From Dehalococcoidia bacterium (GTDB lineage Bacteria > Chloroflexota > Dehalococcoidia > Lucifugimonadales > UBA3495), in the NCBI GenBank assembly GCA_965221025.1, contig CBDCRJ010000001.1:388839-452838 (forward strand): a DNA stretch of 64,000 nt, given 5' to 3'. The notes under the pieces were generated by a model. That model saw only the letters and a program-made list of their open reading frames with translations. It searched no databases and was not told where the DNA came from. Of this stretch, positions 10,129-18,606 are shown piece after piece. Position 1 is the first letter of the stretch, and each line of letters begins with the position of its first letter. Position numbers and translations under genes: made by a program.

Positions 10129-11859
10129 GTGTCCGTGAAAGTTCGAGCCAGTCTGATTTTCGTCCTGGCAACCGCCATCCTGTTCATCGGATTGGCCGCC
10201 TGTGGCGGCGACTTCGACGAGGAATCACGCGAATTTGCCGTCCAGACCGACTCTGCCGCCGCTGCCGCTACCGCCGCCCCCGCCGCTGCCGCTACCGCCG
10301 CTACCGCCGCCCCCGCCGCTGCCCCTACCGCCGCCCCCGCCGCTCGGAGGGCGCCAACCGCCGTACCCGCGATGGCCGGAAGCCCTGGGGAAGCGTCAGG
10401 GCAATTCTTCGAGACATCACCAATGGGTCACGCCCAGGCAGCCGCGCTGGCGCAAAGCCGTATCATCGTACGCACCGTCGACATCGTCTTGGTCGTTTCC
10501 GACGTCGCGGCTGCCGCCGACAGAATCGACGGCCTGGTCCGCGGGGTGAGCGGTTGGAAAGTCAGCTCGGACCGCACTCACAAACACTTGGCCACCATTG
10601 CCGTCCGGGTGCCTGCTGAGGTGTTGGACCAAGTCGTGCTGGAATTGAGAGGAATGGCCCTGGACGTAGAGAGCGAGACCTCCACCAGCCAGGACGTAAC
10701 CGACGAGTACGTGGACACCGAGGCCCGGCTCAATGGGCTTCTCGCCACGGAAGCAAGGCTATTGGAGTTTCTCGACCGGGCGGGGGACGTGGAGGACGCG
10801 CTGAACGTCCAACTGGAAATCTCCCGGGTTCAAACGGAAAAAGAGACTATCCTGGGCAGATTGCGATTTCTTCAGGAAACGTCCGCCTACTCCCTGATGA
10901 ACATCGTCCTGCAGGTCCCGCCGGACCGGATGAGAGTCGACGTGGGCCCGGACGCCACATTCAGCGCGGGACAATTCGCCAGCTTCCGGGCGACCTTCAG
11001 CCCACCCAGCGGCGTTGATGAATTCACCTTCTCCTGGGACTTCGGCGATGGCTCGGGGCCGGTTCACGGCAATAGCAGCGCGCCAACTACCAACCCCGGA
11101 GAGCGGGTCACAGCCACGGTAACCCACACGTACGACGATGAGCGCTATTCCCCGTACATCGTGCAGCTTGTGGTCAAAGGGTCTGGCGACGCCGGTTTAG
11201 CCGAGGGTTCGGACACCCTGGAGGCCACCGTTACCAGGGTACCCACCATCGAGGTTTTCGCCGGCGAGCACCGGACGGTCGACGAAGGCGAAGAGGTCGA
11301 GTACGGCGGCTCTTTCACCCGCCCCGAGGGTTTGTGGGACCTCCGGTACCGTTGGGACTTCGGCGACGGATCGGCTACCGTCATCGGCGTTCCCGAGGAA
11401 GGTCTTACCCGTTCCGAAGCATCCCACGTCTACCGGGACTACCGTCCCCAACCCTACCGGGTGACTCTCACCGTTACGGCCCAGAGCGAGGCCGGAGAAG
11501 TCGAGGACTCGGGCTCGTTCGAAGTCCGGGTAAACGAGTCCGAGGGGTTCGTAGTCGCCGGATGGAATGCCGGAGGCCACGCCAAGAGCGCCGTCCGGGC
11601 CCTTTCCGTGTTCGGGCAAGTCTTGGGCACCATTGCCATCTGGTTGGGCATTTTCAGTCCCGTTTGGATAATCGGAGGCTTCATCATCTTCTTCTTGCCG
11701 CGTCTCAGGCGGCGGGCTTCCCGGTCTCCGGGTGGCGGCGCCCCCGATCCTAACATCTTAACGGCCCGTGTTGGCCGCTGGCGTCGCGGCGGCATCCCGC
11801 CGCCCGAGCAGTCCGGCCCTCCCAACCCGGCGGACCAAGCCCCGACAATTCGAGAATAA
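10129..11859 (+). CDS. Lipoprotein with DUF4349-like domain, two PKD-like repeats and a C-terminal TM anchor
   Basis: GTG start and a signal peptide with lipobox (LAACGG), followed by an Ala/Pro-rich linker. The coiled segment QDVTDEYVDTEARLNGLLATEARLLEFL is typical of DUF4349. Two WDFGDGS PKD signatures are present, plus the TM helix IAIWLGIFSPVWIIGGFIIFF. Confidence 0.65.
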   Translation: MSVKVRASLIFVLATAILFIGLAACGGDFDEESREFAVQTDSAAAAATAAPAAAATAATAAPAAAPTAAPAARRAPTAVPAMAGSPGEASGQFFETSPMGHAQAAALAQSRIIVRTVDIVLVVSDVAAAADRIDGLVRGVSGWKVSSDRTHKHLATIAVRVPAEVLDQVVLELRGMALDVESETSTSQDVTDEYVDTEARLNGLLATEARLLEFLDRAGDVEDALNVQLEISRVQTEKETILGRLRFLQETSAYSLMNIVLQVPPDRMRVDVGPDATFSAGQFASFRATFSPPSGVDEFTFSWDFGDGSGPVHGNSSAPTTNPGERVTATVTHTYDDERYSPYIVQLVVKGSGDAGLAEGSDTLEATVTRVPTIEVFAGEHRTVDEGEEVEYGGSFTRPEGLWDLRYRWDFGDGSATVIGVPEEGLTRSEASHVYRDYRPQPYRVTLTVTAQSEAGEVEDSGSFEVRVNESEGFVVAGWNAGGHAKSAVRALSVFGQVLGTIAIWLGIFSPVWIIGGFIIFFLPRLRRRASRSPGGGAPDPNILTARVGRWRRGGIPPPEQSGPPNPADQAPTIRE

Positions 11860-11887
11860 GAACAGCCCATTTCAGGAGGCGTCCATC

Positions 11888-12749
11888 ATGTCACACGCCC
11901 GTGAACGGTTTCGGGAGGTCCTCTCCCGTCCTTCCTGCACCCTGGCAGCCAATGTCTTCGACCCTCTGTCGGCCCGGATTGCTCACCTGGTGGGGTACGA
12001 GGTCTGCGTTCTCTCCGGCTCTGTGGGCAAGTCGGCCAGCCTGGGCGTCCCGGACGGCGTCCTTGCCAACATGTCGGACGTGGTGGACCATTGCCGCCGC
12101 ATTACCCGAATCGCAGACGTCAGCCTGATGGTCGACGCCGAAGATGGCTTCGGCAACGCGGTCAATGTGTTCCGGACCGTGCGGGAGATGGAGGCCGCAG
12201 GCGTCGCCGGAATCGAGATTGAGGACAACTTCGTACCCGGACGGTTCAACGTGGCGGAACCCGGACTGGTTTCCACGGAAGAACAGGTGGGGAAGCTGGA
12301 AGCGGCGGTCGCGGCCCGCACCGATCCCACCACCGTCATCGTGGCCCGTTCGGCGGCGTTAGGGGTTATGTCCGCTGGACGAAGCACTCGAACGGGTCCG
12401 GGCCTACTCCCAAACCGGGGCCGAGGCCCTGATGCTCACCGGCGCCGCCAGCCGGGAGCAGATCGAAGCGGTCCATCGGGCGACGCCCCTGCCGCTGTCT
12501 GTGCTGGCCCCGCCAGACGGCACCGCTAGCGACCCGACCTTCCTCGCCGCTAACCATGTGCGGATACTGATGTTGGGTAACCCGACGTTCGCGGTGGCCG
12601 CCAAAGCCATCCACGACACCCTCAAACACCTGAAAGACGGCGGAGCCCTCGAAGACACCACCTCAAACCAAGCCACCCCTGACCTTCTCCGCCAAGTCAA
12701 CGGCGCCGACGAGTACCTGGCCCTGCAGGAGCAATACCTGCGGGAGTAG
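11888..12749 (+). pseudogene. Second isocitrate lyase/PEP mutase family gene, frameshifted
   Basis: Track ORFs 11768..12529 (real ATG at 11888, MSHARERF) and 12432..12749 are the N- and C-terminal parts of one PEP-mutase-like protein (MVDAEDGFGN, GIEIEDN, VIVARS...). The frame changes between 12363 and 12375: ...AALGVMS then LDEALERVRAYSQTGAEALMLTG. Confidence 0.7.
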
Positions 12750-12757
12750 GGGGGCGA

Positions 12758-13297
12758 TCAGGCGAGGTTGGGCGTGACGGTTGTCGTGCTCAAGTCGATC
12801 GCTTCCACCAATTCCTCAACCGCGTGGCAGAGTCGCCTGAAGGAGCGGGAGTTGGCCGAGGCAAGGTCGAGATCGATTCGGGTAGTCAAAGAAGTTTGCT
12901 CCGCCGTTTCGCTATAATGCCGGCCGGGCAAGAAGTCCTTGAGACGGCCTTTGGCGTCTGCGACGGCTTCCGGGTCTCCAGGAAAACTCCCGGCACCCTC
13001 AATTATCGATTCGAGACTGGACAAGAACCAACTCTCATATTCTCTTACCGCGCAAACAACCGCAACCGGAGTCCGCGTGTCCCGGGCGATACACCGGTCT
13101 GCCAATCCCTTCGCCAGATCGCGAGGACACTCATCATCGGAGTCTCGGATTACGAGGATTGCGTCGGGGTTGGATTCCAATGCGTACTCAATAAAGCTCT
13201 CGATTCGCCTCGTCAAATTCCCAGAGCCTTTGGCGCTGACCGTCTTACCGACAACGTAATCGTAGAGTCCCATGCGTTCGTAAAGAAGCCGACGCAA
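12758..13297 (-). CDS. DUF4276-like protein, apparently 5'-truncated
   Basis: 179-aa ORF with ILVIRDSDDE, REYESWFL and a C-terminal ...SANSRSFRRL, which resembles DUF4276 from memory. Only a TTG start at 13297 is available, and the in-frame upstream stop (13313-13315) lies inside the left inverted repeat. The N-terminal EGxxE strand typical of the family is missing. Confidence 0.55.
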   Translation of the reverse strand: MRRLLYERMGLYDYVVGKTVSAKGSGNLTRRIESFIEYALESNPDAILVIRDSDDECPRDLAKGLADRCIARDTRTPVAVVCAVREYESWFLSSLESIIEGAGSFPGDPEAVADAKGRLKDFLPGRHYSETAEQTSLTTRIDLDLASANSRSFRRLCHAVEELVEAIDLSTTTVTPNLA

Positions 13298-13298
13298 C

Positions 13299-13323
13299 GG
13301 TTCCGTTTGCCTTTAGCGTATGC
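13299..13323 (+). repeat. Left terminal inverted repeat
   Basis: Exact 25-nt match to the reverse complement of 17365-17389. Confidence 0.9.
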
Positions 13324-13375
13324 CCTATGGTAGCATCGCGGCGTGATTGAAATCAACGTCCTTTGCGGGTAGACC

Positions 13376-15014
13376 ATGCCGACCCGACTTCTGTACAGCA
13401 ACGATTGCCTGAACGTCCTGAACGACGAGTTGGCCTTGCCCACAGGCTCGGTTGACCTCATCTACCTGGACCCGCCTTTCAACTCCAAAAGCATCTACAA
13501 CCTGCCGTTTGCAGGCAAGGACAAAGACGCCCGGCCTGTCGAGGCATTCAACGACACTTGGACTTGGGGCACCCAAGAGGACGCATTGCTACGGGACCTG
13601 TCCACTGGCCCACAGTCGCGCATCTTGGCCGATATAGTCAGTCTGGCCCAGCGGCTGGACACCCAAAAGTCGGGGGGGGGGGGGACTCGCCCCCTACCTG
13701 CTCAACATGGCGGTGCGGCTACTGGCGATGCGACGGGTGTTGTCGCCGCAGGGATCGATCTACCTTCACTGTGACGACGCGGCCAGCCACTTCCTCAAGC
13801 TGGTGATGGACGCCGTTTTCGGCCAGCAGAATTTCAGAAACGAAATCATCTGGAAGCGCACCAGCGCCCACAACGATGCCCGCCAGGGCAGAGAGCAATA
13901 TGGCCGGGTCCACGATACGTTGCTGTTCTACACCAAGGGCGGCTCGTGGGCTTGGCATCAGATTTACACCGGGTACGACCGGACCTATGTCGAGGCGTTC
14001 TACAAGCACGTTGAACCAGGGACAGGGCGTAGATACCGGCTGGACAATTTGGCCGGGCCTTACGGCGCGGCCAAAGGCAATCCCTACTACGAAGTGATGG
14101 GCGTGAGCCGTTATTGGCGATACAGCCAAGAGCGTATGCAGGAGCTGATTGGCCAAGGCCGGATTGTGCAGACCCGGCCGGGCGCAGTCCCGGCCTACAA
14201 ACGCTACCTAGACGAAATGCCGGGGTTGCCGCTCCAAGACGCATGGACCGATATAGGCCCAATCGCATCACAGGCCAGGGAACGCCTCGGCTACCCGACA
14301 CAGAAGCCGCTTGCCCTGCTGGAGCGCATCATCACGGCCAGTTGCCCCCCCGATGGTCTGGTGTTGGACCCGTTCTGCGGTTGCGGCACGTCGGTACACG
14401 CCGCCGAGAAGCTGGGGCGGAGCTGGGTCGGCATCGACATATCCACCTTTGCGGTCGGCCTGATGCGGGGCCGGATACTGCGAAACTTCGGCCAGTTGAC
14501 CACCGATGACGTGCTGGTGCGCGGCGTTCCGGTCAACGTGGGCGAGGCGGAATCTCTGGCGGAGCGGGACAAGTTCGAGTTCGAGAAGTGGGTATGCGGC
14601 GCGATAGGGGCGGAAGGGATGTTTCACGACCCCGGCACACGAGGGGCGGATGGCGGGGTGGACGGCGTACTGAAGTTCTATCCCTTTCGCATGGGAAAGG
14701 CTCCAAAAGCGGAGTTCGCTATCGTTCAGGTCAAGGGCGGGAGCGTTAGCGCGGACTCGGTGCGGGCTCTCAAGACGACGGTGGACCGCTTTGGTGCCAA
14801 GGCCGGGGTGTTGGTGTGCTTCAACCGCTATATGCGGACAGTGGAAAACCAGCGGGTGAAGGCGACATTCACGGACGATGCAGGGGCCTACCCGGTGATT
14901 CAGGGGTTGAGCGTAGAGGACTTGTTGGGAGACAAGCGCCCGGACCTGCCGCTGTACGGATACCGTCCGCAGGGCGGGCGGGTCAGCAATCAAGCCGAGT
15001 TATTGGCTCGGTAG
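13376..15014 (+). pseudogene. Beta-class N6A/N4C DNA methyltransferase fused to an Mrr-cat-type restriction endonuclease domain, out of frame at a G13 tract
   Basis: Track ORFs 13376..13774 and 13707..15014 are one gene. Motif IV DPPFN is in the first ORF. APYLLNMAVRLLAMRRVLSPQGSIYLHCD and motif I FCGCGTS are in the second. The C-terminus FEFEKWV...GADGGVDGV...IVQVKGG matches the PD-(D/E)xK Mrr-cat pattern. A tract of 12 or 15 G would give one 545-546-aa ORF. Confidence 0.8.
13672..13684 (+). repeat. Homopolymeric G13 tract inside the methyltransferase ORF
   Basis: Counted directly: c + 9 g (13671-13680) + 4 g (13681-13684). Confidence 0.95.
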
Positions 15015-15017
15015 ACA

Positions 15018-15290
15018 ATGGGGTGGGGGATAGAGAATAGAGGGATGAATTGGTGCAGGCTTGTTGGAGCCGTGGTCCTACTATTGGCCCTTGCCATTGC
15101 CATCATCTACGTGGTGGCGCCACTGGTTTTCATCCTGATTCTCATGGTATTGGCGGCAATATGGTCGTTCGTGATAGCTATTGGGGTCTTTGTCTACGGT
15201 AAAGATTTGCCAACATGGGCAAGGCGGTCGGTACTGTTGGTGGGTTTGGGTTTGGCTGCTTTTCTGATGTACGATACCTTTGCCAGATAG
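15018..15290 (+). CDS. Small membrane protein (3 predicted TM helices)
   Basis: 90-aa ORF starting 4 nt after the methyltransferase stop, with three hydrophobic stretches. It overlaps a competing minus-strand 73-codon single-TM ORF (15178..15397), so the call is tentative. Confidence 0.4.
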   Translation: MGWGIENRGMNWCRLVGAVVLLLALAIAIIYVVAPLVFILILMVLAAIWSFVIAIGVFVYGKDLPTWARRSVLLVGLGLAAFLMYDTFAR

Positions 15291-15493
15291 CAACCCATAG
15301 CGCGACAGCAAATCCGCCCATCAACGAGACGATGATGATAAGGATTGTCGCCAACCACCAAGGCGGGACGTAGGGGGCAGGTTCCATTTCAGTCTTTCTT
15401 CCAACGGCCTGAAGTAGTTGGAACATTTTAGCATACCACAGCGAGACCACGGAGCCCCGACGATCTCCATTCAAGAAGAAGGGGGTGGAAGCG

Positions 15494-15724
15494 ATGAGTT
15501 ACACCGATGATGAACTCAAGGAAAAGCGTCTCCGGTATCTCAAGGACTGCAAGCCGAAAGAACTCCGGCAGCTTCGCAAGGACGGCGCCCTGGCCGACGC
15601 CCTGGACCGGCGGGTTGCCCGTTGCCGCCGCCGTGCTGAGGAACTGATGGATAGCGGCACCTTTGAGGGACAAGCCTGGAGTTGGGCCGTCCGTGAAGTG
15701 CTACTTGAGACGGAGGCAGACTGA
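15494..15724 (+). CDS. Hypothetical protein (76 aa, helical, Arg/Glu-rich)
   Basis: ATG at 15494 preceded by GGGGGTGGA. The ORF is packed 37 nt upstream of the next ORF. I did not recognise a family. Confidence 0.45.
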   Translation: MSYTDDELKEKRLRYLKDCKPKELRQLRKDGALADALDRRVARCRRRAEELMDSGTFEGQAWSWAVREVLLETEAD

Positions 15725-15761
15725 GGCGTGGTGGTTACTCTAGTTGGCTTAGTCAACCAAA

Positions 15762-16037
15762 ATGGCTAGGCGTAAGAGCGGCCGCGCAAGCCTGACCGAC
15801 TATGAGTTGGCCTGGGTGGTGCGGGAAGTCGCCAAGCTAACCGACAAGAGTTTCCGCGAGATCGGAGAGGCCCTTGCCAACGATATGTTCGACCACGAAG
15901 ATTCCCTGACGGAGTACGACTACACGTTGGGCATGAATGTCGCGGGAACGCTGGAAACGCTCTGGCCCAGGGAAGGGGAATGGAAGCCCGGGCCGGATGC
16001 GGAACGGGCATTGAACCTGATTCGGCGGGTCTTGTGA
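15762..16037 (+). CDS. Hypothetical protein (91 aa)
   Basis: The ORF ends 19 nt before the transposase start, in an operon-like arrangement. I did not recognise a family. Confidence 0.45.
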   Translation: MARRKSGRASLTDYELAWVVREVAKLTDKSFREIGEALANDMFDHEDSLTEYDYTLGMNVAGTLETLWPREGEWKPGPDAERALNLIRRVL

Positions 16038-16056
16038 GGGGAGGGAAGGGCTGGGT

Positions 16057-17151
16057 ATGACTGAATTCACTAAAACCACGACCATCACTGTCAATTGCCC
16101 TGATTGCGATTCCGACCATGTGGTGAAGATAGGTAAGCAATCGGGCCAGCAACGCTATCGGTGCCGTGGTTGCAACAAAGACTTTCGGGCCAACGGCAAG
16201 GCCAAGGGCCGGCACATGGACGCGGAGCTCATGGGCTCGGCCATCCGGGACTTCTACACGGGTAAAAGTTATAAGCAAATAGCCGAGGGGCTGAAAGAGG
16301 AATACGACCTGGAGAAAGAGCCATCGAAGGCCACGATCTACGAATGGGTAAGGGACTACACCGATCAGGCCGTGGCAGAAATGTCTAACCACAAGGCCAA
16401 GACCGGCGGCCGTTGGGTGGCGGATGAGCTAATGGTGGACGTCGGCGGCCAGAAGGTGTGGCTATGGAACGTCATGGACGCCGAGACCCGCTACATCCTC
16501 GCATCGCACCTAACCCCCAGGCGCGACGCTCAGGCGGCGCGTGTCGTTATACGAAAGGCGGCGCTGGCGGCAGACAAGCCGCCCAAGACCATCACCACCG
16601 ACAAGCTCAGGTCCTACATCCGGCCAATCAAGGACGTTCTGCCGGAGGCCGACCATATCCTGTCGGAAGGCTTGCGGGCGGAGGTCAACAACAACCTTTC
16701 GGAGCGGCTACAGGGAACGTTCCGGGACCGCATCAAGACGCTCCGGGGCATGGACAGTCTCAAGACCGGGCAACGCTACCTTGACGGTTGGGTTCTCACC
16801 TACAACCTTTTCCGGGGCCACGAGAGTTTGCATAACAAGACGCCGGGGTACAAGGCCAAGGTGAACCCGCCGTTCAAGGAATGGGCCGACGTGGTAAAAG
16901 ACGGGGCCGCGTCTCTGCCAGTCAAGACAGCGGAGACGCGGCCAGCCTCACGGTCGCCACGGAAGTCGCCACGGCGTCAAGCCGTCCGCGTGGAACCGCC
17001 CAAGGCCAAGGGAAAAGGCGGAGACGCCGCCGAGTTCAAGCCCCTGCCGCCGGGGATTCTCCGGGCGCTACCCAGGGCGATGCGCCCCAAGGCCGGGGGG
17101 AGAACGTGCAAGCCGAGGGGCAAATCGGCCGTTAGAAGCCGGGTGGCATGA
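16057..17151 (+). CDS. IS6-family-like (IS240-type DDE) transposase with N-terminal zinc ribbon
   Basis: CPDCDS...CRGCN zinc ribbon. The DDE core follows the IS6 pattern: ADELMVDVGG (D), TITTDKLRSY (D), NNNLSERLQGTFRDRIK (E). The C-terminal tail is basic and low-complexity. Confidence 0.75.
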   Translation: MTEFTKTTTITVNCPDCDSDHVVKIGKQSGQQRYRCRGCNKDFRANGKAKGRHMDAELMGSAIRDFYTGKSYKQIAEGLKEEYDLEKEPSKATIYEWVRDYTDQAVAEMSNHKAKTGGRWVADELMVDVGGQKVWLWNVMDAETRYILASHLTPRRDAQAARVVIRKAALAADKPPKTITTDKLRSYIRPIKDVLPEADHILSEGLRAEVNNNLSERLQGTFRDRIKTLRGMDSLKTGQRYLDGWVLTYNLFRGHESLHNKTPGYKAKVNPPFKEWADVVKDGAASLPVKTAETRPASRSPRKSPRRQAVRVEPPKAKGKGGDAAEFKPLPPGILRALPRAMRPKAGGRTCKPRGKSAVRSRVA

Positions 17152-17160
17152 GGAGACAAA

Positions 17161-17340
17161 ATGGAAATCACCTGCGGGGTTTGTGGGGGACAGGTGGTAC
17201 CGGAGCGAAGCGTCCGCTGGCCGGTCGTCGGGTGTTTGTTAGTTCTGTTCTGGCCGCTCGTCCCCTTCTACATCCTGTATGCGTGGCCTCGGAACCGTTG
17301 CCCGGATTGCGGCAGCAACGTGTATCACCGGCCCGCCTAA
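17161..17340 (+). CDS. 59-aa zinc-ribbon/TM mini-protein (below the ORF-track cutoff)
   Basis: Hand translation: MEITCGVCGGQVVPERSVRWPVVGCLLVLFWPLVPFYILYAWPRNRCPDCGSNVYHRPA*. This is CxxC, then one TM helix, then CxxC. It starts 10 nt after the transposase stop. Confidence 0.4.
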   Translation: MEITCGVCGGQVVPERSVRWPVVGCLLVLFWPLVPFYILYAWPRNRCPDCGSNVYHRPA

Positions 17341-17365
17341 ATGGTCTCGCGAGACCATTTAGGCG
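17334..17365. repeat. Perfect 32-bp palindrome abutting the right inverted repeat
   Basis: CGCCTAAATGGTCTCG|CGAGACCATTTAGGCG. The TAA of the mini-ORF (17338-17340) and the TAA of the ATPase (17359-17361, minus strand) each lie in one arm. Confidence 0.9.
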
Positions 17366-18606
17366 CATACGCTAAAGGCAAACGGAACCCTATGAAGTTC
17401 TCCCGGTGTAAAGAGTTTTTTGGTGACCGCATTCCGTTGATCTTCAGCGACCAGTCCGGCAATGGTCCCGCCATCAGTCATTTCGACTGCCCGAATACTG
17501 TTTACAGGTACTAAATCCAGGAAATCCGGGCTGTGGGTAGTGACCAAAAGGGACATTCGCTCTGTCGCGACCTCTCCCATCAACTCCGCTATGTACGCCA
17601 ATGCGCCAGGATGTATGGTGAGTTCCGGTTCCTCGATAACCTTCAGGCCCGGGGCCTGTTGGTAAAGCGCCACCAAAAGGCCCAGAAGACATAGGGTGCC
17701 GTCCGACTCCTGGAATCCCTCTAAAACCAAATCCTTTGCCCTTGGTTTGTCCGGCTCGTGAGTAAACTGGAGATATAAATGACCACCGGCCGATTTTACT
17801 CCGACATTTTTTATCCCTGGTACTACGTGCCCTAGGGCCGCGAGTAGCTCCTTGAAGTCTTCGTCACGTTTCTTAATCATCTCATCGAGGACGGACCCCA
17901 AATTCCCGGCGTCTTCGTTTAGCGGAAAACCCGCCGAAGTCCTTTGAGGCTCCCGTAGGGCGTTCGGAAAGATATGGTAGCGCCGTATTTCACTGAGGAG
18001 TTCTTTCGCTCCAACCAAAGTTTGGCCATACTTCGAAAAACCCTGTCGCCCAATCGCCAGACGAGTCCAAACTGTGATAAGAGGACTCGATAACGCCAAA
18101 TCCGACGCGGGTGTTTTGAACAGTTCCGGTTCCATAACTGAATTCGGTCGCCCAAACAACTCTGGGGACCGCTTCGATACACTTGATACCGAAGGCATTG
18201 TTAGCCGCCCGCCCGTAAATGCCAATGCGGTCCGGTTGGTATCACTTTCTTTCGGTGTGACGGTCATATTTTCGGTTCGAACCCTATGGTCCCCGGTCCC
18301 AGAGAATCGAAGGGAAAATTCATACTCGAATAACGACTCGGGATGATCGATCCCAACTCCTACGGTAACGTCTCCCCGGTCTCTCCGAATTGCAGCACGG
18401 CCCCGGGCCGCCAATGCTGAGTCCAATCCATCCCGAAGCGCATCTGAAATGAACACCAGAATGTCTGCGATGTTGCTTTTTCCAGAGCCGTTCGGTCCCA
18501 CTAACACCGTGAGAGGGGCTAACTCCAACTCGAGGCTCTGGATACTGCGGAAATTCTTCGCCCAGATTTTCGTGATTCTTGGTATCGTTGGCTGTTCCAT
18601 GGTCAC
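17359..18606 (-). CDS. ABC/SMC-like AAA ATPase (AAA_21/AAA_15 type) with a non-native C-terminal end
   Basis: Walker A GPNGSGKSN, Walker B/D-loop VIEEPELTIHP, and TTHSPDF. GC content is visibly lower than in neighbouring genes. The last 8 codons and the stop come from the repeat and palindrome of the inserted element. Confidence 0.8.
   Translation of the reverse strand: MTMEQPTIPRITKIWAKNFRSIQSLELELAPLTVLVGPNGSGKSNIADILVFISDALRDGLDSALAARGRAAIRRDRGDVTVGVGIDHPESLFEYEFSLRFSGTGDHRVRTENMTVTPKESDTNRTALAFTGGRLTMPSVSSVSKRSPELFGRPNSVMEPELFKTPASDLALSSPLITVWTRLAIGRQGFSKYGQTLVGAKELLSEIRRYHIFPNALREPQRTSAGFPLNEDAGNLGSVLDEMIKKRDEDFKELLAALGHVVPGIKNVGVKSAGGHLYLQFTHEPDKPRAKDLVLEGFQESDGTLCLLGLLVALYQQAPGLKVIEEPELTIHPGALAYIAELMGEVATERMSLLVTTHSPDFLDLVPVNSIRAVEMTDGGTIAGLVAEDQRNAVTKKLFTPGELHRVPFAFSVCA
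17365..17389 (-). repeat. Right terminal inverted repeat
   Basis: Exact reverse complement of 13299-13323. It also encodes the last residues (VPFAFSVC) of the ATPase ORF. Confidence 0.9.

Follow-up and report, generated by a model that had tools for sequence, protein, structure and literature searches.

We find that the gene under study is the cargo of an IS1-like transposon, which lies between the two genes of a candidate defence pair in the window, the 64,000-nt stretch of a Dehalococcoidia genome that we analysed (Table 1). A sequence-only reading of this DNA had described a mobile restriction-modification (R-M) gene sitting in a defence locus, and both parts of that description hold: the element of 4,091 bp is of the IS1 type with 25-bp inverted repeats, and the genes on its two sides match HEC-01A and HEC-01B in PADLOC (2e-69 and 2.5e-34, respectively). 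These two genes now lie 4.1 kb apart, and the 3′-end of the ATPase gene is replaced by the transposon end. We suggest that insertion of the transposon separated the ATPase and DUF4276 genes of what was a HEC-01 candidate defence pair. No target-site duplication was found, as the flanks of this copy and of a second copy described below contain no direct repeat; the duplication made by classical IS1 is 8–9 bp.

Table 1. Features of the transposon, its cargo and the flanking genes, with positions in the window.
Feature	Position	Strand	Remarks
DUF4276 / HEC-01B gene	12758..13297	-	Abuts the left transposon end; start 2 nt from the left inverted repeat
IS1-like transposon with methylase-nuclease cargo, 4,091 bp	13299..17389		Perfect 25-nt terminal inverted repeats
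Left terminal inverted repeat, GGTTCCGTTTGCCTTTAGCGTATGC	13299..13323		100% complementary to the right repeat
5′ ORF	13376..13774	+	First 104 methyltransferase residues including catalytic motif IV (DPPFN), then 28 out-of-frame residues and stop
3′ frame	13638..15014	+	Open from 13638; first ATG at 13707
G13 homopolymer, proposed slippage switch	13672..13684	+	Translated as a Gly run when ON
Small cargo ORFs, role unassigned	15018..16037	+	Three ORFs between cargo gene and transposase
90-aa membrane ORF	15018-15290	+	
~76-aa ORF	15495-15724	+	Read by eye
91-aa ORF	15762-16037	+	
Transposase, 364 aa	16057..17151	+	InsA zinc ribbon (Zn_ribbon_InsA) and DDE_Tnp_IS240/rve core, IS1-like
Right terminal inverted repeat	17365..17389		
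AAA_21 ATPase / HEC-01A gene	17359..18606	-	Last ~10 codons and TAA stop (17359-17361) inside the transposon end

The arrangement of a cargo gene followed by the transposase recurs in related elements (L092-L096, L131-L133, L154 and L155). Of the small ORFs between the two, the first (15018-15290) has no match in Pfam, NCBIfam or PADLOC, and the last (15762-16037) has none in the family libraries, PADLOC included. Two of the related elements, L154 and L155, carry a 135-aa ORF at the place of the three small ORFs.

The window holds exactly 13 G in the cargo gene (context aaag tc G13 actcgcc). Starting from the ATG at 13376, frame 1 passes through the run as S-G-G-G-G and reaches its stop at 13772-13774, after 132 aa. 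The frame that continues on the other side of the run contains what remains of a beta-class methyltransferase, namely the YLHCD block, the target-recognition region and motif I (FCGCGT), and in addition a C-terminal Mrr_cat nuclease; the +1-frame translation across the run reads ...SRGGGGLAPYLLNMAVRLLAMRRVL...YLHCD / ...GGGGLAPYLLNMAVRLLAMRRVL...YLHCD.... As the span from 13376 to 15014 is 1639 nt, 12 G would give a protein of 545 aa and 15 G one of 546 aa. A change in the length of the tract toggles the product in this way between 132 aa (13 G) and 545 or 546 aa with both domains (12 or 15 G), and we refer to the joined frame as ON and to the split one as OFF. The window sequence and its frames agree with the sequence-only reading on all three of these points, that the 13-G run splits a methyltransferase-endonuclease gene, that with 13 G the frame holding DPPFN ends at 13774, and that 12 or 15 G would join both ORFs into 545-546 aa.

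For the family searches the two frames were fused by hand. In a profile search the joined protein matches Pfam N6_N4_Mtase over residues 26-358 (3e-37) and Mrr_cat over residues 398-487 (2e-6), and the PF01555 match scores 129 bits against a cut-off of 26.7. Motif IV (DPPFN, residues 32-36) precedes motif I (FCGCGT, 333-338), which is the beta-class order, and the Mrr motifs GGVDG ... VQVK are conserved in the C-terminal nuclease. By both sequence and fold, the closest proteins are the Type III Mod subunits EcoP15I Mod (4zcf) and H. pylori Mod (6k0w) together with other beta-class methyltransferases. The two domains share one reading frame when ON, and full-length homologues exist. We therefore propose that the gene would encode a single-chain R-M enzyme, a putative beta-class, Type III-Mod-like N6/N4 methyltransferase fused to an Mrr-type PD-(D/E)xK nuclease, with activities predicted from the domains. 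Neither the ORFs nor a profile search reveal a Res (helicase-nuclease) gene between the inverted repeats of the transposon, and membership in Type III R-M was ruled out in the absence of a separate Res, the nuclease being the fused Mrr_cat domain. Type IIG enzymes usually combine a gamma-class N6_Mtase with an N-terminal nuclease. The window protein, unlike these, is beta-class (PF01555, with a Type III-Mod-like fold) and carries its Mrr_cat nuclease at the C-terminus, which also rules out classical Type IIG membership.

In an AlphaFold model of P0005, a natural ON homologue, the Gly run (102-107) forms a low-confidence loop between helices at 84-100 and 107-125, and changes in its length should for this reason be tolerated, as far as the model can be relied on. 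GGG makes up 21% of the Gly codons in the genome, and the Gly run is nevertheless always all-GGG, which points to selection at the level of DNA rather than protein.

Relatives were gathered by protein and genome searches, which gave homologues at 72–87% protein identity. Roughly half of these are called as proteins of ~430 aa that start at the first Met past the run, like the window gene. At the same codon position, the homologues from other species contain pure G runs of 7-20 nt, in all three frames. A comparison of orthologous elements had been proposed by the sequence-only reading, and it finds the run present at lengths from G7 to G20 in both ON and OFF states. OFF copies are found with G13 (the window and G011), G17 (L010 and L090) and G10 (L093), and also with short runs, namely G8 (L094, whose contig name marks a 41x circular contig) and G7 (L089). 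Genome G024 has G10 in five 100%-identical transposon copies of 3.6 kb with a related methylase cargo, all of them OFF, while the three copies in G010, which are 99% and 93% identical, have G9, G12 and G15 and fall in the same nominally OFF frame. ON copies are found with G20 (L091), G19 (L092), G17 (L095), G15 (L096) and G7 (L005), and three further copies are in frame without a run (L002, L009 and L004).

The clearest example is a pair of element copies of 4,219 bp from one metagenome sample, with different flanks, that are 99.95% identical and differ by one mismatch and one gap. That sole gap is the run, with G19 in one copy (a 579-aa gene) versus G18 in the other (140 + 430 aa). Clusters formed at ≥90% identity hold both full-length and ~430-aa products. 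Both half-frames are full length and free of further defects in 9 of the 11 OFF copies, and a second, upstream defect occurs in two of the G010 copies. In a tree of the C-terminal parts, genes with the run are found in at least three sublineages with run-less genes interspersed, and they span ~25% protein divergence.

The second copy of the transposon (locus L106, G000 C2:566870-570910) has identical 25-nt ends and a transposase module that is 95% identical, and its cargo is a different gene, which encodes N6_N4_Mtase and an HNH nuclease. This gene has a C14 run (sense strand) between the methylase and HNH domains. In the assembled sequence the 425-aa methylase is intact and the frame is lost for the nuclease alone, which would leave restriction off and methylation on. 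The closest homologues of this second cargo lie beside the same type of transposase and are in frame, either with C12 or, in L133, with the interrupted run C6-TA-C5. Homologues in the genus at ≤55% identity have no run, and in this family the run was seen only among close homologues from the protein collection. Accident can hardly account for long runs in both cargo genes, which are different genes on the same type of transposon and have the run at different positions.

We suggest that the G13 run is probably a hypermutable simple-sequence repeat through which translation of the methylase-nuclease is switched on and off, that is, by phase variation, and that the gene is OFF as assembled here. 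Many relatives, and near-identical copies as well, have pure G runs of variable length at the same site, some ON and some OFF, which supports the phase-variable switch that the sequence-only reading had put forward. The run also exceeds the minimum of ≥9 nt for a mononucleotide tract in a phase-variable mod gene (PMC5909438). In such a switch, slipped-strand mispairing during replication would add or remove a G. At lengths of 3n (12, 15 or 18) the motif IV segment would be joined to the remaining enzyme and the gene would be ON, and at lengths of 3n+1 or 3n+2 translation would end after 132 aa, the OFF state. Because methylase and nuclease are one polypeptide, both would be lost together in the OFF state, and switching off should not be self-toxic. 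We infer that the cells of one population would then differ in restriction, in methylation and in what the transposon cargo costs them.

The run is not the only one of its kind in the genome, which is 4.44 Mb in two contigs with 61% G+C. Counted over the whole genome, there are 147 G/C runs of 7 nt, 10 of 8, six of 9, one of 10 and none of 11-12, followed by 13 runs of 13-16 nt; the longest A/T runs are ≤10 nt. This gap at 11-12 nt marks G13 as a member of a separate class of long runs, and the bimodal distribution ruled out a chance run resulting from base composition. Besides the runs in the two transposon cargos, eleven runs of 13-16 nt lie at G000 C1:639017 and 639307 and at C2:190498, 198691, 210859, 460192, 2247560, 2687404, 3085630, 3185409 and 3732506. 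Most of these eleven coincide with, or shortly precede, the 5′-ends of genes that encode secreted proteins of 650-1030 aa with fn3, cadherin, PT-linker or beta-propeller repeats, and we regard these proteins as candidates for phase-variable surface proteins. Runs of ≥13 nt occur in 35 of 40 genomes of the genus (0-45 per genome, ~309 in total). One genome contains eleven C runs of ≥13 nt within ~850 bp (G045:C1:155886-156726), an unusual array of repeats if not an artefact of the assembly.

Long C runs in the genus (G001-G055) often read A-C(n)-GACTTT. Across the 40 genus genomes 54 of the ~309 long runs read C(n)-GAYTTT, and this module is present in 22 of 39 genus genomes versus 2 of 150 other genomes of the class. 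Its place is at the 5′-ends of genes for secreted proteins and lipoproteins: in 20 examples (L134-L153) it either follows closely on the start codon, with a signal peptide or lipobox behind it, or precedes the ATG by ~30 nt, and one of the 20 is another methyltransferase. The window methylase gene has a GACTTT-type flank on the antisense strand (sense CAAAAGTC-G13). The run could belong to a portable switch system specific to this lineage, in which the shared flank is significant, and switching would then not be passive slippage at a repeat that arose by accident. In one variant, the flank could be the sign of a dedicated mechanism for creating or targeting the runs; alternatively, in the window the flank could be an outward-facing promoter, gated by the run, through which HEC-01B is expressed again after the transposon separated it from its operon. 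The flank is missing in about half of the run-bearing methylase homologues and is accordingly not required for the run, and we hold it hardly likely at all that such a dedicated system is at work.

The length of 13 was read from a consensus, and long-read consensus is at its weakest in homopolymers of 13 nt. The run could be real with a majority length of 12 or 15, in which case the gene would be whole and 13 an error of assembly or polishing; this would touch only the state read here and is compatible with the run being a switch. The contig names of related records (ctgN_41x_c, ctgN_4x_l) follow what we take to be the format of an assembler for long-read metagenomes. The main class of error left in such data is long homopolymers, and many related contigs are covered at 2-13x. 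From these contig names many of the source assemblies appear to be low-coverage long-read metagenomes, so that the scatter of ON and OFF states among the relatives could partly be consensus noise. Against a miscount, the general indel error in the assembly is low: 198 intragenomic repeat pairs with 265 kb aligned show 29 gap openings, seven IS copies of 1,467 bp are 100% identical with zero indels, and RpoB, DnaE, three class-I tRNA synthetases, MutS and MutL are all whole. On the identical IS copies and the whole essential genes, a generally error-prone assembly was ruled out. Furthermore, the OFF state is also found at short runs, which are less prone to error (G7; G8 at 41x; G10 in five separately assembled copies), and the relatives show all three frames. 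We consider a miscount unlikely, on balance. The sequence-only reading had taken other frameshifts in the window as a caveat pointing to assembly error, a concern that is weakened by the indel-free IS copies and by one of the frameshifts themselves, and of which there remains that the length of 13 could still be a miscount. The frameshift in question, a 1-nt insertion in a PEP-mutase-family gene (11768-12749, at ~12362; TTAGGGG versus TT-GGG in four genus genomes), is more likely a true mutation given the clean assembly, and this gene is probably a true pseudogene.

A true frameshift in another gene of the genome would also suit a non-adaptive explanation, in which the run is a mutation-prone hot spot at which a selfish, costly cargo is knocked out repeatedly and irreversibly, with the window copy as a young pseudogene, and which would exclude a selected switch. 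The tract-bearing copies from the unbiased genome searches speak for this, as all five independently sampled lineages with a run of ≥9 are OFF (a chance of ~13% if phase were random), which fits a hot spot inactivating a costly selfish gene as well, and so does the second defect in two of the G010 copies. Two further points weigh against a switch: no variation is seen among the five recent G024 copies, all with G10, and with MutS and MutL intact the rate of slippage should be lower; long tracts still slip in repair-proficient bacteria. Against a hot spot, ON alleles have kept pure runs of 15-20 G, the run is spread over at least three sublineages and ~25% protein divergence, 9 of 11 OFF copies have no second lesion, and the G18/G19 pair records a change in a very recent background. 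A neutral run would moreover be expected to become interrupted, as in the L133 homologue of the second cargo. We find this explanation quite improbable. It could also be that OFF is really LOW, with RNA polymerase slippage or ribosomal frameshifting yielding some full-length enzyme, a reading that is compatible with a switch. Long homopolymers, mostly A/T runs, are known sites of transcriptional slippage, and it would be odd for dead genes that G9, G12 and G15 in G010 share one nominally OFF frame (1 in 9 by chance). However, slippage at G/C runs is less documented than at A/T runs and two of the three G010 copies have the extra upstream defect, and leaky expression of this kind appears very unlikely to us. 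The degrees of confidence in the switch, the miscount, the hot spot and leaky expression were judged separately and need not add up to certainty, and both the miscount and leaky expression could hold together with the switch.

Phase-variable R-M genes are a textbook trait of small-genome, host-adapted pathogens, and what appears to be the same device is now found in uncultured Dehalococcoidia (Chloroflexota). The proposed switch is portable, as it travels with its gene inside an active-looking transposon, and it is part of a set of long G/C runs that extends through the genus and may also control adhesin-like secreted proteins. Should the switching prove real, these bacteria would be bet-hedging on defence and on the cell surface in the manner of Campylobacter or Neisseria, and mobile elements could bring in defence genes that are silent at first and become active at random. 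For annotation, we point out that genes split by such runs in long-read MAGs should be neither dismissed as pseudogenes nor silently corrected.

The element itself resembles IS1-family elements with passenger genes, presumably of the ISMhu11-type subgroup (ISfinder). It shares with them a single InsA zinc ribbon and DDE transposase, the inverted repeats, a cargo placed between one end and the transposase, and the occurrence of multiple copies in relatives (five identical copies in G024). Unlike them, it has no target-site duplication at either copy, it carries what would be a switchable R-M fusion, and two copies with common ends and transposase have different cargos. Literature searches on the name ISMhu11 and on phase variation in Chloroflexi returned nothing useful.

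Cj0031 (CjeFIII) of Campylobacter jejuni NCTC11168 is described as a phase-variable Type IIG R-M enzyme (Anjum et al. 2016, PMC4889913). Cj0031 and the window gene are alike in that methyltransferase and nuclease are in one polypeptide and the length of an intragenic poly-G tract sets ON or OFF, and both are part of a genome-wide set of poly-G tracts, which are contingency loci in the case of Cj0031. They differ in that the window gene is the cargo of a transposon and its host is an uncultured member of the Dehalococcoidia, not a host-adapted pathogen. [quoted passage not shown] 2018, PMC5909438). The window gene has in common with these the beta-class adenine-methyltransferase fold and an intragenic G tract of ≥9, whereas its transposon has no separate Res and the nuclease is fused; regulation of other genes by methylation is a further trait of phasevarions. 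In conclusion, the G13 run most likely represents a type of switch already known from Cj0031 and from poly-G Type III mod genes, here carried by a transposon and in a host group new for it.
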